Below, one piece after another: positions 5,092 to 12,570 of a stretch of DNA of 25,754 bases. Numbering within the stretch: the first letter of the stretch is position 1; each line of letters begins with the position of its first letter. This stretch comes from a virus. Taxonomy: Duplodnaviria > Heunggongvirae > Uroviricota > Caudoviricetes. The notes under the pieces are model-generated. The model saw only the letters and a list, made by a program, of their open reading frames with translations, was not told the DNA's origin and did no database searches. The translations under genes and the position numbers were made by a program. The stretch is from IMG/VR virus record IMGVR_UViG_2740892213_000014, one strand, 5' to 3'.

Positions 5092-5213
5092 GAAACCAGA
5101 GCATGCACACACAAAAAAACCGCTTGCCATGCCGCAATCGGTCAGGTTACATTTCCGCTGCACCTCATAAAACGGGTGCCGGGATTCTCAACCCGATACA
5201 GAGCAAAGCGCAT

Positions 5214-5236
5214 AACCGCGCCAGCGGTTTTTTTGT
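5214..5236 (+). terminator. Candidate intrinsic terminator: stem AACCGC/GCGGTT, loop GCCA, then 7-T run
   Basis: Read directly from sequence at 5214-5234; lies in a ~320-bp non-coding gap inside the early operon. Confidence 0.45.
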
Positions 5237-5413
5237 GCGTACTGTATTGCCACGTCTTTTTCGCGTCAGAATTATGGCGGGGCGTACGGGGCCGACTTCG
5301 GTCGGGCCGGATTCTTTGCTCTCCGGTGTTGAGAACCCTGTACGTCTCGCCACCCCGAGATTCTCAACTCTGGATGGTGAGTTATTTCTATCACCGAGCA
5401 AAGAGGCCACACC

Positions 5414-5644
5414 ATGGCAAACCGCAAACAGCACCGCGCTATCGCGGAGCGTCGTCACATCCAGACTGAAATCAACCGCAGACTTTCCCGCGCATTCCGC
5501 GTCGCTAAAATCATGCACATCAATATGCTGCATGAGCGTAGCTGCGAACTTTCAAACCTCTACTCATCCGCTGTTTTCAGCTATCTGGCGGATGATCTGC
5601 GCGAGCTTCAACAGCTCATCCAGCAGCAAAACAAACTCCATTAA
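5414..5644 (+). CDS. Hypothetical early protein, 76 aa
   Basis: ORF track; AAGAGG RBS at 5401-5406. Confidence 0.55.
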   Translation: MANRKQHRAIAERRHIQTEINRRLSRAFRVAKIMHINMLHERSCELSNLYSSAVFSYLADDLRELQQLIQQQNKLH

Positions 5645-5716
5645 TTCCTGTTCCGGGCCTTTCCTGCACCTTGCGGCGGGAGGCCTTCGCACATCTGTAA
5701 CAAGAGGATTGCCGCA

Positions 5717-6082
5717 ATGATTCTCGCCAACGACTTTCTTGAATACCTGCTCAACACAGAGCGTGATCTTGCCGCTCGCGTACGTGATCGTTATGACATG
5801 TATCTGAAATCCCTGCCTGTGCCGCAGCTCGCTGACGGAAAGATTGTTATTGATGGTCGCTACATGATTGACAGCCACGAGGGAAATTACAGGCTTTACC
5901 GCATTGAAGGTGGCACCCCGTCCGTTATTGGCATTTACCAGCGCCCATCCTCTGCAATCGTCGATGTGATTGCCGACAGCATCCGCATCACACATCGCCA
6001 TGCCGACACAGAAGACACCGTGCTGGAAATTCAGCGGCTGGCTGCCGTCTGCCGCGACACCCTGAATGGCATGACGAAGTAA
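5717..6082 (+). CDS. Hypothetical early protein, 121 aa
   Basis: ORF track; AGAGGA RBS upstream; immediately precedes gene A. Confidence 0.55.
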   Translation: MILANDFLEYLLNTERDLAARVRDRYDMYLKSLPVPQLADGKIVIDGRYMIDSHEGNYRLYRIEGGTPSVIGIYQRPSSAIVDVIADSIRITHRHADTEDTVLEIQRLAAVCRDTLNGMTK

Positions 6083-6088
6083 ATCACT

Positions 6089-8911
6089 ATGACGGCAGAG
6101 TACATCAGGGACTGGCAACAACCGCGCCACGCAGTGGGACGTGAAGGAACGGGGATCCCCGTTCCTGAATCCGCGCTTTCCTCCTGGCTGGATGCCTACC
6201 GGGCAGAGAACGAGCGCCGCCAGGAAATGGCTGATGCGGCGTTCTCCGCCACGCCGCTGGGCAACCTGATTAATAAAAGCCTGGATGCACAGGAAAAACA
6301 GGACAAAACCATCACACTGGCAGGAGACGCCAGAAAACAGGTACGCGGTGCGGTGGATGAAGCCATGGCCTCGCTGCGCCTGCTGCCGTCCTATCTGCGC
6401 GATCCGCTTATTCGCCACCTCTCCTTCCTGCGCAAAAAACAGGAAGCCGATCGCCGGAAAGGCAAAAAGAGCTGGCAGGCTGAACGCTACGCGCGCGGAA
6501 CCCTGCGCAAAATATTCGAACGTCTGGACCGCACCGACCACCGCTGGCTGACACCGGGTTATCGCTCCCTTGCCGGACGCGAACGCCTGGATGATTTGCT
6601 TTACCTGCCGCAGCTCAACAAGCACCAGATACAGACGCTGGCCACCATGACGGCGGCGATGTTCAGCAGCACCTTCGAAAAACTCTGCGATGGCTTTGGC
6701 GCGACTGATGGCGAGCTGACCATGGATGTAACGCTGAAGGCGTATCAGATGCTGGCCCGCATGGCGTTACACCTGCACGCCATGCCTCCGCATTATGACG
6801 CACTGACAACAGACAAAGACCGGAGGAACGAACCGGACACGGAGCTGCTGCCGGGCGCAATCCTTCGCCTGACCTGTGCGGAATGGTGGAAACGCAAACT
6901 GTGGCTGTTACGTTGCGAGTGGCGGGAAGAACAACTCCGCGCCGCCTGTCTGGTTTCCAGAAAAACATCGCCCTATCTGAGCCAGGACGCGTTAAGCGAG
7001 TTTCGCGCACAGCGCGAGAAAACACGCGATTTCCTGAAAAGTTTCATGCTGGAAAACGAAGACGGGTTCACGATTGATCTCGAGACGGTGTATTACGCGG
7101 GAGTAAGTAACCCGGTTCACCGTAAGGCAGAAATGATGGCCACCATGAAGGGGCTGGAACTTCTGGCCGAAGCCCGTGGCGACAAAGCGGTGTTTCTGAC
7201 TGTCACCTGCCCGTCAAAATACCACGCCACAACAGAGAACGGTCATCCGAATCCCAAATGGAACGGGGCCACCATGCGCGACTCCAGCGATTACCTGGTT
7301 AACACGTTTTTTGCGGCGGTCCGCAAGAAACTGAACCGCGACGGCCTGCGCTGGTATGGCATCCGCACGGTGGAGCCTCACCATGACGGCACCGTGCACT
7401 GGCATATGATGGTCTTTGCTCATCCGGAAGAAATCGACACCATTGTGTCCCACACCCGCGATATTGCCATTCAGGAAGATCGTCACGAGCTGGGTGATGA
7501 TATTACCCCACGCTTTAAGGCGGAGTACGTCGACGGCTCAAAAGGCACACCGACCAGCTACATCGCCACCTACATCGGGAAAAACCTGGACAGCCGTGCC
7601 GTGGATGGCATCGACCCGAAAACGGGCAAGCCACGCGTTGACCACGAAACCGGAAAATCAATGGCCGAGAGCGTGGAACGCGCCATCGGCTGGGCGCGCC
7701 TTCACCGGGTCCGCCAGTTCCAGTTCTTTGGTATCCCCTCCCGTCAGGTGTGGCGTGAACTGCGCCGCCTTGCCAGCCAGATGGCTCGCAACCCGGAAGG
7801 ACCGCAACGGCTGAAGGATGACGCAATGGACGCGGTTCTTGCTGCCGCTGATGCCGGATGTTTTGCCACCTACATAGAGAAACAGGGCGGCGTACTTGTT
7901 CCACGCAAGGACTACCTGATTCGCACCGCCTACGACCTCGCCGATGAGCTGAACGATTACGGTGAACAGAGCGTACAGATTTACGGGATCTGGTCACCGC
8001 TCATCGGGGAGTCTTCCCGCGTATGCACGCATCCGGACAACTGGAAGCTGGTAAGACGCAAACCGGAAGCGGAAGACAGCGCCCGCGAAAATGGTTTTGA
8101 CCTTCAGGGCGGCCCTGCCGCACCTTGGACTCGTGGCAATAACTGTCCCCGTGTACAGGAAACGGACAACAACGGGACAGAACAGCCGGAAGAACGGCCA
8201 GCACCGTGGCCGCAGCTTCCTGACGGCGTTGACGTGAACGAATGGATGCGCTCACTGAAACGGCACGAACGCCGGGCGCTGATGCGTTCGCTGCGTGACA
8301 AACAGGCAAAAAACAGCAGTGATGAAATGCAGAGCTGGACACAGAGCCGCAAACAGCAGCGGCCTTTGCCTGATAACCACGAATTACTCGCTAAAGAATG
8401 GCGGGAATCTGCCGAATCTCTCGGCCTGCATATCGGTGAACAGCAGATGCAGCACCTGTTACGGGGCGGCAGCCTGTACGTTGACGGCAGCATCATTGCA
8501 CCGCAGGGATTTGAAATTGTACGCAAACCGGATACCCGCCCGGACAGCCGAATCACGCAGCTCTGGCAGCGCCTGAGCCGTAATCACGGCGTAAGCAGCA
8601 CGGAGATCCGCCATAACCCGGTCGCCAGCTATCTGGAACAGCTGGGGGCATCAGACCCCGAAGCCGCCGCACGTCTGGCATCCACACTTCAGCAGGACCA
8701 GAACACCATGAACCCCCCCGTTACCGTGCTTTCTGACATGCTGCGCGCCATCCGCGACGCAGAGCACGCACAGAGAATCAGTGAAACCACTGAACGTGCC
8801 CGCCGCAAAGCAGACCTGCTGCGGGGTGGCCTGACCAGTGGAAACAAAAAACAGACAGAAACGGGATTCACAAATCCCGTAAATGAGCAAAAAACGCGCC
8901 GCGATATATGA
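6089..8911 (+). CDS. A: Rolling-circle replication initiator / replication endonuclease, P2 gpA family, 940 aa
   Basis: HUH-type motif VHWHMMVF and paired catalytic tyrosines in SYIATYIGKN (Y-x3-Y) are typical of gpA/phiX174-A-type initiators. Position between early genes and portal matches P2 synteny. Protein is longer than I recall for P2 A, with a C-terminal extension. Confidence 0.88.
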   Translation: MTAEYIRDWQQPRHAVGREGTGIPVPESALSSWLDAYRAENERRQEMADAAFSATPLGNLINKSLDAQEKQDKTITLAGDARKQVRGAVDEAMASLRLLPSYLRDPLIRHLSFLRKKQEADRRKGKKSWQAERYARGTLRKIFERLDRTDHRWLTPGYRSLAGRERLDDLLYLPQLNKHQIQTLATMTAAMFSSTFEKLCDGFGATDGELTMDVTLKAYQMLARMALHLHAMPPHYDALTTDKDRRNEPDTELLPGAILRLTCAEWWKRKLWLLRCEWREEQLRAACLVSRKTSPYLSQDALSEFRAQREKTRDFLKSFMLENEDGFTIDLETVYYAGVSNPVHRKAEMMATMKGLELLAEARGDKAVFLTVTCPSKYHATTENGHPNPKWNGATMRDSSDYLVNTFFAAVRKKLNRDGLRWYGIRTVEPHHDGTVHWHMMVFAHPEEIDTIVSHTRDIAIQEDRHELGDDITPRFKAEYVDGSKGTPTSYIATYIGKNLDSRAVDGIDPKTGKPRVDHETGKSMAESVERAIGWARLHRVRQFQFFGIPSRQVWRELRRLASQMARNPEGPQRLKDDAMDAVLAAADAGCFATYIEKQGGVLVPRKDYLIRTAYDLADELNDYGEQSVQIYGIWSPLIGESSRVCTHPDNWKLVRRKPEAEDSARENGFDLQGGPAAPWTRGNNCPRVQETDNNGTEQPEERPAPWPQLPDGVDVNEWMRSLKRHERRALMRSLRDKQAKNSSDEMQSWTQSRKQQRPLPDNHELLAKEWRESAESLGLHIGEQQMQHLLRGGSLYVDGSIIAPQGFEIVRKPDTRPDSRITQLWQRLSRNHGVSSTEIRHNPVASYLEQLGASDPEAAARLASTLQQDQNTMNPPVTVLSDMLRAIRDAEHAQRISETTERARRKADLLRGGLTSGNKKQTETGFTNPVNEQKTRRDI

Positions 8912-8956
8912 AGCGCACACAAAACAGGCAAAAACGGGATTTCAGAATCCCGTAAA
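8858..8956. repeat. Two ~26-bp direct repeats, each with a perfect 8-bp-arm palindrome ACGGGATT-N4-AATCCCGT (8861-8880 and 8934-8953); candidate parC-like centromere or operator
   Basis: Read directly from sequence. Repeats bracket the stop codon of A and lie just upstream of the ParM homologue. Confidence 0.35.
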
Positions 8957-8987
8957 CGATTAATTAATCAACATAAGGAAAAGCGAC

Positions 8988-9947
8988 ATGAAAATTTGTA
9001 TCGACGACGGCTCCACCAACATCAAGCTGGCATGGACTGAGAATGGCGAACGCCGCAACGCCATCAGCCCGAACAGCTTCAAGTCGGAATGGTCTGCGCC
9101 GTTCGGTGGCATGCAGCCCGCGAACTACATGCTTGATGGCGTGCGCTATGGTTTTGATCCGGTCAGCGATCGCTTTGTCCAGACGACCGACACGCAATAC
9201 CAGTACAGCGATGTGAATGTAATCGCCATTCATCACGCGCTGGTCAAATCAGGCATCACGCCACAGGAGGTGGATGTGGTTGTCACCCTGCCACTGAGCG
9301 AGTATTTCGACACAAACGCACAGCCGGACATGGCCAACATCAACCGCAAAAAAGCGAACGTTATGCGCCCGGTGGAGTACCAGAACGGCGAAGCATTCAC
9401 TATCCGTAACGTGCGGGTTATGCCTGAATCCATTCCGGCTGGCTTTAAAGCACTGGCTGACATGAGTCCGTTTGAATCCCTGCTGATTGTGGATTTAGGC
9501 GGAACCACGCTGGATGTGGCAAAGGTTCAGGGGCAACTGGCAGGTATCAGCCAGGTGTTTTGCGATCCACACGTAGGCGTCTCCCTGATGGCCGGTGCCG
9601 TGCTGTCGGTGATGGCCGCTAACGGTATGCGTACCAGTCACCACATCGCCAATACCATTATCGAACATCGCCATGATGAAGCCTGGTTGCGCCAACACAT
9701 CCACAATGACGCGCATTACGCCAGCCTGATGGCGGTTATTCGTGAAAAGGAAGAAACACTGAAACAACGCGTGATCCGCGCGCTGGCGGGTTTTTCGGGT
9801 TACGGGCGGGTGATGGTTGTCGGTGGCGGGGCGGAGATTGTGGCACCCGCTATCCGCGAAGCCTGCGGAGTTAATGCGACTTTCATCGCGGACGGGGTGC
9901 CACAGTTTGCTCTGGTTAATGGGCTGTACGCAATGGACAAGGAGTAA
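8988..9947 (+). CDS. parM: Actin-like segregation ATPase, ParM/StbA family, 319 aa
   Basis: Long-range similarity to plasmid R1 ParM as I recall it (N-terminal IDDGSTNIKL, YSDVNV…HHAL, VMPESIPAG, DLGGTTLD, VGGGAE). AAGGAA RBS upstream. Confidence 0.8.
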   Translation: MKICIDDGSTNIKLAWTENGERRNAISPNSFKSEWSAPFGGMQPANYMLDGVRYGFDPVSDRFVQTTDTQYQYSDVNVIAIHHALVKSGITPQEVDVVVTLPLSEYFDTNAQPDMANINRKKANVMRPVEYQNGEAFTIRNVRVMPESIPAGFKALADMSPFESLLIVDLGGTTLDVAKVQGQLAGISQVFCDPHVGVSLMAGAVLSVMAANGMRTSHHIANTIIEHRHDEAWLRQHIHNDAHYASLMAVIREKEETLKQRVIRALAGFSGYGRVMVVGGGAEIVAPAIREACGVNATFIADGVPQFALVNGLYAMDKE

Positions 9948-9951
9948 ACCA

Positions 9952-10266
9952 ATGACGACACCAACCAGACGGATAAGTTTCTATCTGAAGCCAGTCGCCG
10001 TCAATAGTGAACGGGAGGCGTGTAATTACCTCGACAGCCTGCCAGCCTCTGAACGCAGCCGCGCGCAACGCGCGGCCTTTCTGGCCGGGCTGGCACTCAT
10101 AAAACGCGATCCTGCATTTGCCTATTGGTTGGCCGAATGGCCGGAAGAAGGAGCTGCGCCAGCCAAGAATAATATTCAGAGTAAATATGCCAGCACACCT
10201 GCCACCGGAAGCAATCACAGCACTAGCGAGATAAGAAAGAACATTCAGTCATTTTTCCCAGAGTGA
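9952..10266 (+). CDS. parR: ParR/StbB-like centromere-binding adaptor, 104 aa
   Basis: Start moved to ATG 9952 (MTTPTRRISFYLKP…), 5 nt after parM stop, with AAGGAG RBS. Segment DSLPASERSRAQRAAFLAGLAL resembles R1 ParR as recalled. Confidence 0.65.
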   Translation: MTTPTRRISFYLKPVAVNSEREACNYLDSLPASERSRAQRAAFLAGLALIKRDPAFAYWLAEWPEEGAAPAKNNIQSKYASTPATGSNHSTSEIRKNIQSFFPE

Positions 10267-10285
10267 AAACAGGAGAGGAGCATCT

Positions 10286-10747
10286 ATGGCAACTATCCCC
10301 AAAAAATGGTTACAACGCAAAATTGCAGACCTTGAATCGTGTCGTGAAGACATCCCGTTTGGCCTTGATGAAAACGATCACAATATGTTAATCGCACTGA
10401 AAATCGCACTCACATCGCTGGAAGCAGAGGCAGTTATGTTCTGTATATCAGGACAAAATGTAGATTCAGAAGAACATGTATCAACCAGCAAAGCGGTTGT
10501 TGATGCCTGGGTTGAAGAATGGAATCAGGTTGACGGAAGTCCTGGCGAACCACTGTACAAAACTATGCCACTCTACTATCACGCTGCCTTGCCAGCGCCG
10601 GTAGTGCCGGAAGAAGCAACTCCGGAAAACGTAGAAATGCTCTCTGGCTATGTTTCCACATACAAATTAACCGATAGCGAGCGCGATATTGCTGCCGAAA
10701 TATGGAACGCCTGCCGCGCCGCTATGCTTCATGGGAAAGGAGAGTGA
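10286..10747 (+). CDS. Hypothetical acidic protein, 153 aa
   Basis: ORF track; strong RBS AGGAGAGGAG. Composition is strongly acidic; no recognisable motif. Confidence 0.55.
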   Translation: MATIPKKWLQRKIADLESCREDIPFGLDENDHNMLIALKIALTSLEAEAVMFCISGQNVDSEEHVSTSKAVVDAWVEEWNQVDGSPGEPLYKTMPLYYHAALPAPVVPEEATPENVEMLSGYVSTYKLTDSERDIAAEIWNACRAAMLHGKGE

Positions 10748-10748
10748 T

Positions 10749-11012
10749 ATGGCAACTTTAACAAAAAAAGAACGGGCATGGTTGAACGAATTACAGGACG
10801 TTCTTGATCGCTGCCCATCACCGAAAAAAATTGGTTTTTACACCATTGGCGATAAAAGCATTTACCTGTATGACCTGCGCCGCATGGATGAAATCATGGA
10901 GGCTCTTGATAATCGTTCGTCAATGGATTGGTGTGTTGCTGTCCATGATATGAATGCAGGGTTTGATGAAAAGATTTTGTTCCCCTCATCAGTTGAAAGC
11001 ACAGCAGGATAA
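10749..11012 (+). CDS. Hypothetical protein, 87 aa
   Basis: Start moved to ATG 10749 (MATLTKKERAWLNEL…), 2 nt after upstream stop, with AAAGGAGAG RBS. Confidence 0.5.
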   Translation: MATLTKKERAWLNELQDVLDRCPSPKKIGFYTIGDKSIYLYDLRRMDEIMEALDNRSSMDWCVAVHDMNAGFDEKILFPSSVESTAG

Positions 11013-11046
11013 GGACCCAGCCAATATACACAACCTATAAAACACT

Positions 11047-11073
11047 AAAGCGCCTCAGGGGCGCTTTTTGTTT
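11047..11073 (+). terminator. Intrinsic terminator: 8-bp stem AAAGCGCC/GGCGCTTT followed by T-run
   Basis: Read directly from sequence, 35 nt after the last plus-strand accessory gene. Confidence 0.6.
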
Positions 11074-11099
11074 GCACAAAAGTGCACAAATTTGCACAA
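11073..11099. repeat. Three direct repeats of TGCACAA / GCACAA at ~10-bp spacing
   Basis: Read directly: tTGCACAAaagTGCACAAatttGCACAAt, in the presumed cos-proximal non-coding region. Confidence 0.3.
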
Positions 11100-11473
11100 T
11101 TTTTTTGAACGACTTTTTACCCTTCCGGCCCGCATGGCGGCTGGATCCGTCAAGGATCCGTGCGTGCACAAAAAAACGCGCTTTTTCTACGCGCAGGTGA
11201 CGGGGGAACAGCCCGCGTTTCAGGGGGTAAATAGCATTCCCTGAACGATGTCGCAGAGATACAACAGAATGGCTGTATTTCTCACGCTGAGCGTGAAAAA
11301 GACGTGAGGGCTTTTGATTTGATGGGGTGAAAGGTAAGGCCGTCAAAATCGCACTGAGACGGCGAGAACATGCAGTCAACGCGGTGGGATTGCGTAAGAG
11401 TCTGGCTGTCGATGATGGCAATAAGCAGGAAAGCGTCGTGAAATTATCTGATTGATACAGGAGCTGGAGAGTC

Positions 11474-11496
11474 GGGGCATAAATTTTTTATGCCCC
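11474..11496. other. Perfect 23-bp palindrome GGGGCATAAATTTTTTATGCCCC, downstream of portal gene
   Basis: Read directly. 10-bp stem with 3-nt loop and no flanking U-tract; possible terminator for the P-Q operon or a protein-binding site. Confidence 0.35.
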
Positions 11497-11523
11497 GGCG
11501 AAGCAGCAGACAAGCGAAGCGCG

Positions 11524-12570
11524 TCAGGATGTGGGCTGGGTGTCCAGCAGTGCATAAGGGTTAAAGCGGATCACCTCTTCGCCAAGCCAGTCATTGATGT
11601 GCTTCATGGCCTCCATGACGGGCATCAGCTCGTTAATTGCGTAAACCCGCGCGGCCTTCTCCACATCACCAAACGCACTTTTTTCGCCCGGCATCGCCCC
11701 CATCAGTTGCGGCGGAACGCGGTGCGCAGCCAGCACATCATCACGGGATGCCGCCTTAACATTCATGAACTCATCCTTTGCGGTGATCTGCTGGAACGGC
11801 AAAATTTGCACCCCCTCTTTGCCCCCGTTGGGCGCATGGATGAGCACGTTTTTAAACGCACCACCACCACGCGCACCCTGTAGCGTTTCTTTCAGGGAGT
11901 CCATGCTTTCGCGGTTTACCTGCGCTGCACCGATGTAGATGATGCACCCGGCGTGGGATCCATTGTCGTAATACAGTTTTCTGAACATGTCCGCCGAATG
12001 AGACAGGCTGGCCGAGAGTAATGCGCCAAGATATTCCGGCATGCCGTAAATTTCCTGGTTAATGTCAGGATTCATCAGGTGGCACACTTTGCCAGGGCGA
12101 AACTGAAACGCGTCCTTGCCATCCTGCACATACCACCATGATTCAAGATCGCTTCCGCGTCGCATGTATTTCGCCAGGGCGTGCCGTAATTTAAGCGGTT
12201 CGCCGAGCATATTGCTTCGAAGCTCAAGGAATGCGTTACCGAACACAAACCAGTCCAGCGCCAGCGCCGAGAAATCCTGCCGGGAAAGCAGCGGGTGCGG
12301 AATATAGCAGCCGAGCAATACATTGCGCTTAAAGTAAAGCGCAGACTGATGCCAGGACGTTTGCCGGGCAGCTCTTGCCAGACCGTACCAGTCCACCGGG
12401 GTTTCGTACCACCGCCCGTTATCAGCACAGTACATATTGTCCAGCAGGTCATGCCCGGTCAGGCGATAAGGACCATCAAATGTGAATGCACTGAGCGATG
12501 ATTCTTTCCTGAGCGCATCAGCGAGATCAATGCGTGAACTCATGCGCACTTTTTTATTTTTTCTGCTCAT
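11524..12570 (-). CDS. Q: Portal (capsid portal) protein, P2 gpQ family
   Basis: Size (348 aa) and position downstream of terminase large subunit match P2 Q. Start ATG at 12570-12568 overlaps the TGA stop of P (TGATG coupling). Confidence 0.88.
   Translation of the reverse strand: MSRKNKKVRMSSRIDLADALRKESSLSAFTFDGPYRLTGHDLLDNMYCADNGRWYETPVDWYGLARAARQTSWHQSALYFKRNVLLGCYIPHPLLSRQDFSALALDWFVFGNAFLELRSNMLGEPLKLRHALAKYMRRGSDLESWWYVQDGKDAFQFRPGKVCHLMNPDINQEIYGMPEYLGALLSASLSHSADMFRKLYYDNGSHAGCIIYIGAAQVNRESMDSLKETLQGARGGGAFKNVLIHAPNGGKEGVQILPFQQITAKDEFMNVKAASRDDVLAAHRVPPQLMGAMPGEKSAFGDVEKAARVYAINELMPVMEAMKHINDWLGEEVIRFNPYALLDTQPTS

Follow-up and report, generated by a model that had tools for sequence, protein, structure and literature searches.

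A mosaic accessory cassette behind the partition genes of a P88-like prophage, with a small protein of the ST64T Orf-87 family

The window considered here is the whole of IMG/VR virus record IMGVR_UViG_2740892213_000014, a 25,754-nucleotide (nt) stretch of Caudoviricetes DNA; the prophage in it belongs, judging from its sequence, to the P2 family (P88/Xuanwuvirus type). Behind its partition genes parM and parR lie two small open reading frames, ORF1 and ORF2, which a sequence-only reading had singled out as a translationally coupled pair of acidic proteins that might be anti-defense or defense cargo. The two genes and the elements that make up or delimit them are as follows.

10286-10747, plus strand: ORF1, 153 amino acids (aa), 3' of parR
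10286-10435, plus strand: ORF1 module 1, leader, aa 1-50, EaA-type, ending in the junction motif ...IALTSLEAEAV
10436-10612, plus strand: ORF1 module 2, core, aa 51-109, MFCISGQNVDSEEHV...LYYHAALPAPVVPEE, from the segment map
10613-10747, plus strand: ORF1 module 3, tail, aa 110-153 and stop codon, ATPENVEMLSGYV...IWNACRAAMLHGKGE
10737-10751, plus strand: portable junction AAGGAGAGTGATATG, read from the sequence
10749-11012, plus strand: ORF2, 87 aa, 3' of ORF1
10401-11015, plus strand: DNA block 98.7% identical to lambdoid phage vB_EcoS-689R5 (megablast, local blastn)
11047-11073, plus strand: intrinsic bidirectional terminator that ends the parM-parR-ORF1-ORF2 block

The boundaries given earlier for the pair (10286-11012) proved correct, and both ORFs are real genes, because hundreds of homologues of conserved length exist. 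Consistently with the strong ribosome-binding sites (RBSs) claimed for both, a Shine-Dalgarno sequence precedes each ATG: AGGAGAGGAG lies 5 nt ahead of the ATG at 10286, and AAGGAGA (10737-10743) ahead of the ATG at 10749. The gap between the genes, said to be 2 nt, is 1 nt (TGA at 10745-10747, T at 10748, ATG from 10749). The terminator that had been proposed was recovered by a terminator scan as a hairpin (11047-11067; 9-bp stem with 5 GC pairs) followed by a T-run.

Neither product had been recognized from the sequence alone, yet both have many relatives. ORF2 matches phrog_1714 from end to end (1-87/87, E = 9.6e-51) and is 58.6% identical to Orf-87 of Salmonella phage ST64T, a protein of equal length with the same motifs; the two differ only in their host element (P2-like versus P22-like) and their neighbors. 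Having the length of PHROG 1714 proteins (~85 aa), their motif series CPSP...GFYTxGD...YD...FPxxVxSTAG, and a full-length profile match, ORF2 classes as a full member of the ST64T Orf-87/PHROG 1714 family. This family forms 202 clusters at 50% identity, nearly all of them stand-alone proteins of 80 to 90 aa, from Enterobacterales, Vibrio, Aeromonas, Brucella/Falsochrobactrum, and Paracoccus. Its conserved features are LTKKExAW, RCPSPKKIGFYTIGD, LYDLR, FPSxVESTAG, and a near-invariant C-terminal glycine; C22, D35, and Y41/D42 of ORF2 are among the invariant residues. The FPSxVESTAG segment (aa 78-87 of ORF2; 10980-11009) is itself near-invariant, and family proteins nearly always end exactly at the glycine; such conservation of the extreme C terminus, which is unusual in a small globular protein, hints at a functional C terminus.

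The AlphaFold2 (AF2) model of ORF2 is confident (predicted local distance difference test score [pLDDT] of 91) and depicts a small alpha/beta protein matching no solved fold. ORF2 had no Pfam or NCBIfam match, and the single protein and the family profile matched PDB sequences only at chance level. The family has no Pfam entry; among the members recovered, none bears a functional name, and none has a Pfam domain that belongs to its ORF2 portion. Searching 1.84 billion representatives with a profile, and iterating a second search with 55 diverse members, brought up only stand-alone proteins of ~85 aa annotated as “hypothetical.” A small number of longer family matches are likewise free of Pfam domains, and some of them are read-through or mis-started fusions. 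A literature search found no paper for RefSeq WP_000201248, WP_000224227, phrog_1714, or Orf-87. Genes 100% identical to ORF2 and to its E. coli-type ea neighbors were also seen on three short contigs of gut metagenome-assembled genomes from unrelated phyla, labeled Segatella copri or Collinsella sp. (L003, L004, and L011); this is Enterobacteriaceae phage or plasmid DNA that was almost certainly assigned to the wrong bins.

ORF1 matches three PHROGs (phrog_5117, phrog_660, and phrog_60); the PHROGs matched by the two ORFs are all of unknown function. It also has 444 homologues in the databases, some of them ead/Ea22-like or DUF551 proteins. Many of these align over only a part of ORF1, with breakpoints near aa 27-51 and at aa 109, and the protein consists of three independently shuffled modules, an EaA-like leader, a core, and a WNACRAAML tail. 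The leader (aa 1-47/71) is 42 to 62% identical to the N termini of P22-family EaA/Eaa1, N15 gp44/45, and HK140 proteins (tblastn), and it is joined to a different core in homologue P0105. The core (MFCISGQ...PAPVVPEE) is common to ead/Ea22-like (PF13935) proteins and genes of the exo-xis region of Shiga toxin (Stx) phages. In P0009 and P0061 it stands, 97 to 98% identical, behind a PF13935 domain (aa 42-153 match the C-terminal part of P0009 at 98%; aa 42-109 match P0061 at 97%), and Stx2 phage Stx2_716 carries it, within its exo-xis region, as part of a distinct ORF of 149 aa that follows an ea22-like gene. We could not confirm that this core is the “63-aa segment” described in Stx Ea22 variants (PMC10834534). 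P0100, P0115, and P0051 have the tail joined to other cores, and in P0008 DUF551 (PF04448) follows it. DNA coding for the module junctions recurs in neighboring genes elsewhere (10413-10443 matches L001 5726-5756; 10703-10734 matches L003 681-712), and these repeats are a likely substrate for module shuffling.

Whole-protein searches with ORF1 gave no Pfam-A family at E ≤1 (hmmscan), PF13935 included, and no NCBIfam match, and comparison with the PDB by single sequence and by family alignment (phmmer, hmmsearch) yielded only chance-level, unrelated matches (E ≥0.18). The AF2 model (pLDDT of 54) shows helices at 6-22 and 29-46 (a hairpin spanning 6-46), at 62-80, and at the C terminus (130-149), with a Pro-rich unstructured linker and no compact fold; it is too poor for a fold search.

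The claim that the two genes form a functionally coupled pair did not hold up. The gene 5' of ORF2 differs in each of the six non-E. coli genomes recovered (Raoultella, Klebsiella, Edwardsiella, Leclercia, Erwinia, and Pectobacterium, in the last of which it encodes a gpA-like replication protein), and within E. coli the genes found there include XF1762, DUF4014, DUF551, and ead/Ea22-like genes. The ORF1 core occurs without ORF2 in Stx phages, and ORF2 usually occurs without the ORF1 core; a looser association is seen in that ORF2 often lies in arrays that also hold EaA/Ea22-type mosaic genes. The junction AAGGAGAGTGATATG encodes ...KGE, the stop codon, the 1-nt spacer, and the ORF2 start, and contains the RBS of ORF2. 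Unrelated genes end in ...IKGE-stop or ...GKGE-stop ahead of ORF2 homologues, and (I/G)KGE-stop followed immediately by ATG is found in many early genes (here at 10737-10751; also at L002 5040-5070 and upstream of 6001 in L008 and L009). The translational “coupling” is therefore no evidence of partnership, because the stop/start junction recurs behind unrelated genes and carries the ORF2 RBS. ORF1 and ORF2 are best described as two independent accessory genes rather than a conserved unit. As a separate observation, the AAAGGAGAGTGATATG junction acts as both RBS and module boundary in many unrelated early genes, and lambda Ea22 itself has the C terminus IRIKGE; the KGE-stop-ATG junction looks like a recombination linker for arrays of ea-type genes.

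That the cassette is horizontally acquired cargo, as had been suggested, is borne out by its low GC content and by breakpoints in similarity to the backbone. ORF1 and ORF2 have GC contents of 0.47 and 0.42, compared with 0.53 to 0.58 for backbone genes. P88-like similarity stops at 10097-10140, in the 3' third of parR, and restarts at 11059-11073, inside the terminator (local blastn). The 10401-11015 block shared with vB_EcoS-689R5 spans the 3' four-fifths of ORF1 and the whole of ORF2; its counterpart there is annotated as “Ea22 protein” plus a hypothetical protein and sits in a small-gene array between the replication genes and the Q antiterminator. The same slot holds a ClpX-zinc-finger-like gene and a hypothetical gene in P88, a single ead/Ea22-like gene in strain GMM076, and four genes in PhiR44_2, the final two of which are an XF1762-family gene and ORF2. 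The exact arrangement of the window was found in 62 of 5,426 complete E. coli genomes. The cassette has been acquired by recombination and occupies a sub-slot behind parMR within the gpA-gpQ hotspot of a P88-like prophage, and its source appears to be a gene pool common to the early-left (ea/exo-xis) operons of lambdoid and P22-like phages, P1-like phage-plasmids, and the putative leading region of IncI2 plasmids. A functional tie to parMR, which had been read from the gene order, finds no support, since the 98.7% identical cassette of the lambdoid phage and the cassette of IncI2 plasmids both occur without parMR.

A prophage of E. coli KFu014 (L016) is 98 to 99.7% identical to the window across the segments compared. 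There, an IS4-like insertion sequence (IS), ISVsa5, lies between ORF2 and the terminator (L016 4444-5652), and 9 bases (11027-11035 of the window) align on both sides of it, which suggests a 9-bp target duplication.

One alternative is that the cassette has no selected function in this prophage. Illegitimate or short-homology recombination among ea-type genes might have produced ORF1 incidentally, and the cassette would be hitch-hiking DNA. The extreme mosaicism of ORF1, the repetition of conserved junction sequences in neighboring genes, the rarity of the arrangement, the IS between ORF2 and the terminator in one strain, and the low-confidence ORF1 model would all be expected on that account. 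However, full-length ORF2 proteins that share invariant residues have been conserved in Enterobacterales, Vibrio, and Aeromonas as well as in Alphaproteobacteria, and the fold predicted for ORF2 is confident; the ORF1 modules are intact and in frame in many combinations, and strong RBSs are kept on both ORFs. We regard an absence of selected function as rather improbable.

The nearest known relatives of ORF1 are the Ea22 proteins (PF13935/IPR025153) of lambda and Stx phages. These are described as mosaic proteins with variable, mostly acidic C-terminal parts (DUF551 in one variant) and as pro-lysogenic through an unknown mechanism; tetrameric assembly and the pro-lysogenic phenotype have been reported for the lambda and P27 proteins (PMC10834534). 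ORF1 resembles them in being mosaic, moderately acidic, and of the early accessory type, in having a core and a tail that occur in PF13935 proteins, and in ending, like lambda Ea22, with ...KGE-stop; the published description fits the kind of protein that ORF1 is. It differs in lacking the defining N-terminal segment and coiled coil, and in its place behind parMR in a P2-like hotspot, whereas the native context of Ea22 is the exo-xis/early-left region. ORF1 has variable C-terminal modules in common with members of the family but, for lack of the PF13935 signature, was rejected as an Ea22 protein proper. Likeness to P22-family EaA/Eaa1 proteins (DUF550-containing) and N15 gp44/45 is confined to the leader, including the ...ALASLEAE junction motif, and ORF1 lacks the DUF550 body; our searches turned up no function for EaA, and we know of none. 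ORF2 is reminiscent of lambda Ea8.5, a small acidic protein encoded directly downstream of an Ea22-type gene. This candidate was also rejected: ORF2 shows neither the homeodomain/zinc-finger hybrid fold nor sequence similarity.

These relationships allow a reading in which ORF1, possibly with ORF2, modulates the lysis-lysogeny decision in the manner of lambda/Stx Ea22, through a host partner and leaving host immunity untouched. The occurrence of the ORF1 core and tail in ead/Ea22-like (PF13935) proteins speaks for it, as do the position of the core next to an ea22-like gene in the Stx-phage exo-xis region, a charge density (-9.2 per 100 aa) near that of lambda Ea22 (-7.7), and the pro-lysogenic activity, mosaicism, and acidic variable C-terminal parts of lambda/Stx Ea22 itself (PMC10834534). 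Against it, ORF1 has no PF13935 match, the C-terminal domain of lambda Ea22 alone fails to give the phenotype (PMC10834534), and BLASTP of ORF1 against full-length lambda Ea22 returned only matches of 2 to 3 residues (E ≥24), its PDB matches being at chance level. Moreover, the ORF1 core and ORF2 reside on IncI2 plasmids, and ORF2 in lytic Chi-like phages, where there is no lysis-lysogeny decision to be made. On balance, such a role is unlikely.

Acidity was the basis for the earlier comparison of ORF1 with DNA-mimic anti-restriction proteins. ORF1 is indeed the most acidic product of the window (pI 4.56, net charge -14, 17% Asp plus Glu), and “strongly acidic” is nevertheless an overstatement: its -9.2 charges per 100 aa compare with -8.6 for lambda Ea8.5 and -23.9 for T7 Ocr (29% Asp plus Glu). 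An Ocr/ArdA-type mimic, with ORF2 as its partner, would agree with the acidity and with the probably early expression of the region. However, the charge density of ORF1 is 2.6-fold below that of Ocr and like that of lambda Ea22, its acidity is spread across three independently shuffled modules, and the low-confidence model, with isolated helices and the Pro-rich linker, offers no compact fold or rigid DNA-shaped body on which a dense array of carboxylates could be displayed. Homology to solved mimics was likewise not found in the PDB sequence searches, in which only chance-level, unrelated matches appeared. Remote-homology searches and structure prediction, which the sequence-only reading had put forward as a check, thus gave PHROG families for both proteins and a confident model for ORF2, and no DNA-mimic pattern in ORF1. 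We consider DNA mimicry highly improbable.

The surroundings of the cassette are those of a well-known variable region. P88, PhiR44_2, 520873, and their relatives match 8900-11500 at 93 to 98% identity in the flanks only (megablast). The neighboring genes are the following.

6089-8911: gpA-like replication endonuclease, first in the gene order of this region
8988-9947, plus strand: parM, actin-like plasmid segregation ATPase, heading a block of four same-strand genes
9952-10266, plus strand: parR, StbB-like partition adaptor (Pfam PF10784 Plasmid_stab_B, 3.8e-25)
11524-12570, minus strand: portal gene Q

The gpA-like protein has 940 aa, which makes it clearly longer, we believe, than P2 gpA, which we take to be of ~761 aa. 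ParM matches the Pfam StbA_N (2.7e-82) and ParM C-terminal (1.6e-67) domains and the phrog_691 partition protein; with an actin-like ParM and a ParR/StbB adaptor, the flanking genes constitute a type II (ParMRC) partition locus, and ORF1 and ORF2 fall outside that family. Placement of the cassette in the A-Q variable slot, as originally proposed, was confirmed: it lies between gpA and portal Q, an interval that is a known diversity hotspot of P2-like phages, in which about one-fourth of these phages carry a putative partition system and anti-phage systems such as old and tin are documented (Rousset et al., PMC9122126).

A scan of 8700-11700 detected no plus-strand sigma-70-like sites and no plus-strand terminators upstream of the ORF1 start. 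ORF1 and ORF2 are most likely cotranscribed with parMR, because no plus-strand promoter- or terminator-like site lies between the gpA 3' end and parM or before ORF1; parM-parR-ORF1-ORF2 are probably transcribed as a single unit, which read-through from gpA can also reach.

Several further elements were noted in this region. Rfam matches at gathering level in the early region correspond to isrK (5160-5234, plus strand, 62.8 bits) and to a C4 antisense RNA (5270-5357, plus strand, 78.5 bits), a P1/P7-type immunity RNA; both overlap the mechanically called ORF 5103-5720. A 43-nt direct repeat is present in two copies spaced 73 nt apart, one within the gpA 3' end (8844-8886) and the other between gpA and parM (8917-8959), each holding a 20-nt hairpin core, ACGGGATT-N4-AATCCCGT; these repeats could be parC/ParR-binding sites or minus-strand terminators. 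Directly 3' of the terminator, TGCACAA occurs three times at 10- to 11-nt spacing (11073-11100), with a fourth copy 90 nt farther on (11165-11174). The TGCACAA repeats, which may form an array for protein binding, belong to the conserved P88-like backbone beside the presumed cos region.

The slot and the gene order together bring up another explanation, namely, that the pair is a prophage defense or superinfection-exclusion system, or a toxin-antitoxin addiction module that aids parMR maintenance. It would suit both the record of the gpA-gpQ interval as a home of anti-phage systems (e.g., old and tin; PMC9122126) and the tight spacing of the two small genes immediately 3' of a partition operon. 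Although the cassette shares its slot with P2 hotspot cargo such as old, tin, retrons, and PARIS-like systems, no family in PADLOC-DB v2 was matched at E ≤1 by ORF1, ORF2, ParM, or ParR. Neither ORF has a Pfam or NCBIfam toxin-antitoxin domain, both products are acidic, and no promoter-like site belonging to ORF1/ORF2 was found. Nor does the distribution agree: ORF2 occurs in lytic phages, the Chi-like ones among them, and in early operons of temperate phages, which are expected to be repressed in lysogens. With no such domains and with variable linkage, the pair does not belong among type II toxin-antitoxin systems; both the toxin-antitoxin and the defense-pair readings were rejected on the ground that ORF1-ORF2 linkage is not conserved. 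The “defense” half of the earlier proposal is accordingly not supported, and a system of this kind is very improbable here.

Informative in this respect is where else ORF2 is found. Homologues were present in 81 phage and 142 plasmid records. In P22-like phages, the gene lies in the early-left operon, between abc2/eae and eaa/xis/int, and lambdoid and P2-like phages also carry it. In the ~59-kb Chivirus phages, which are lytic, it belongs to a same-strand cluster of small and nucleotide-metabolism genes that is taken to be early. Further carriers are phages of 120 to 141 kb and phages of Vibrio, Yersinia, and Aeromonas; more distant members occur in the early operon of a Brucella prophage, beside int, and, in Vibrio and Aeromonas elements, within extended runs of small genes on one strand. 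In IncY P1-like phage-plasmids, the homologue adjoins ead/Ea22-like and DUF551 genes.

Conjugative IncI2 plasmids, a group that carries mcr-1, hold a counterpart of the cassette. In pHN1122-1 and in a K. pneumoniae IncI2 plasmid, an ORF1-core gene is followed by a gene for WP_000224227.1, a protein identical to ORF2. This pair stands directly behind a three-gene operon that encodes a ParA-like TraL and diverges from nikA/mobC-relaxase. The analogy with the leader operon of RP4 and with nikAB of R64 suggests that the site is on the leading side of the origin of transfer (oriT), the first to enter a recipient, and is transcribed away from oriT. The ea-type array continues downstream of ORF2 on pHN1122-1 (L017), where a 177-aa ORF (6283-6816; start MGKESDM...) follows the same junction, and then come a 106-aa ORF (6813-7133) with an EaA-type leader on another body and hicAB. 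The inferred position would liken the IncI2 genes to plasmid leading-region anti-defense islands, since leading regions are enriched in anti-defense genes transcribed away from oriT (Samuel et al., PMC11541004). ORF1 and ORF2 are absent, by accession or motif, from the supplements of that study, and a literature search found no paper whose title or abstract deals with the IncI2 leading region.

The common denominator of the ORF2-family contexts is DNA that is first expressed in a new cell. This distribution fits an entry-phase, host-directed role, possibly in counter-defense. A phage/host-interaction role for the cassette is plausible. The “anti-defense” half of the sequence-only reading thereby gains only contextual support, from the early/leading-region distribution, and none from acidity; overall, the earlier observation is partly confirmed, and its interpretation is partly supported, for reasons other than those given.

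As a working explanation, we propose that the cassette comprises two independent “entry-phase” accessory genes acquired by recombination behind parMR. ORF1 and ORF2 would share the parMR transcript, which probably originates in the early operon, reads through into the block, and ends at the terminator at 11047-11073, and ORF2 would be translated from the RBS within the last codons of ORF1. Each protein would act separately, through a host protein that it binds soon after DNA entry or derepression. The partner of ORF2 would most likely be a host nuclease or immunity component, with counter-defense as the outcome; ORF1 would exert an Ea22-like modulation of host physiology favoring survival or establishment. 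Neither DNA mimicry nor a two-component defense or toxin-antitoxin system would be involved. Taken as a whole, we give this explanation an even chance of being right.

Its individual parts deserve their own caution. Neutralization of a host barrier (a nuclease or immune system) is the class of function likeliest to benefit lytic phages, temperate phages, and conjugative plasmids equally, and it is possible, if somewhat doubtful, that ORF2 has it. The broader proposal, that the ORF2 family is a new counter-defense or host-takeover family common to lytic and temperate phages, phage-plasmids, and IncI2 plasmids (in their putative leading region) and used right after entry, is on present evidence somewhat unlikely. 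Under this proposal, the invariant ...S-T-A-G-COOH terminus and the CPSP/GFYTxGD motif would together make up the site of interaction or activity.

Several points weigh against the entry-phase explanation. None of the members of the ORF1 and ORF2 families has a known biochemical function, and within the wider Ea22 family the one phenotype established by experiment is pro-lysogenic rather than counter-defensive (PMC10834534, PMC7093339). A simple promoter scan could overlook a ParR-regulated promoter, so that the genes might be expressed in the lysogen. The putative leading-side status of the IncI2 site rests on gene order and the RP4/R64 analogy, and MOBP2 elements, to which IncI2 plasmids may or may not belong, show no anti-defense enrichment (PMC11541004).

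Both genes are new copies of catalogued, uncharacterized families, and nothing categorically new is found at this locus, an ordinary mosaic accessory cassette in which ORF2 is a modest lead. What makes ORF2 moderately interesting is the breadth of its family, its placement in DNA that would be expressed first, and its confidently predicted orphan fold. In the main, the finding re-labels two “hypothetical proteins.” It also shows that P88-like prophages draw the contents of the variable slot behind parMR from a pool of shuffled accessory genes that likewise supplies the lambdoid ea/exo-xis regions, the P1-like phage-plasmids, and, in IncI2 plasmids, the region close to oriT. The ORF2 protein is 100% identical in a P2-like prophage and IncI2 plasmids. 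If ORF2 neutralizes a host barrier, it would be an establishment factor common to phages and plasmids; otherwise, the locus would be ordinary mosaic cargo.

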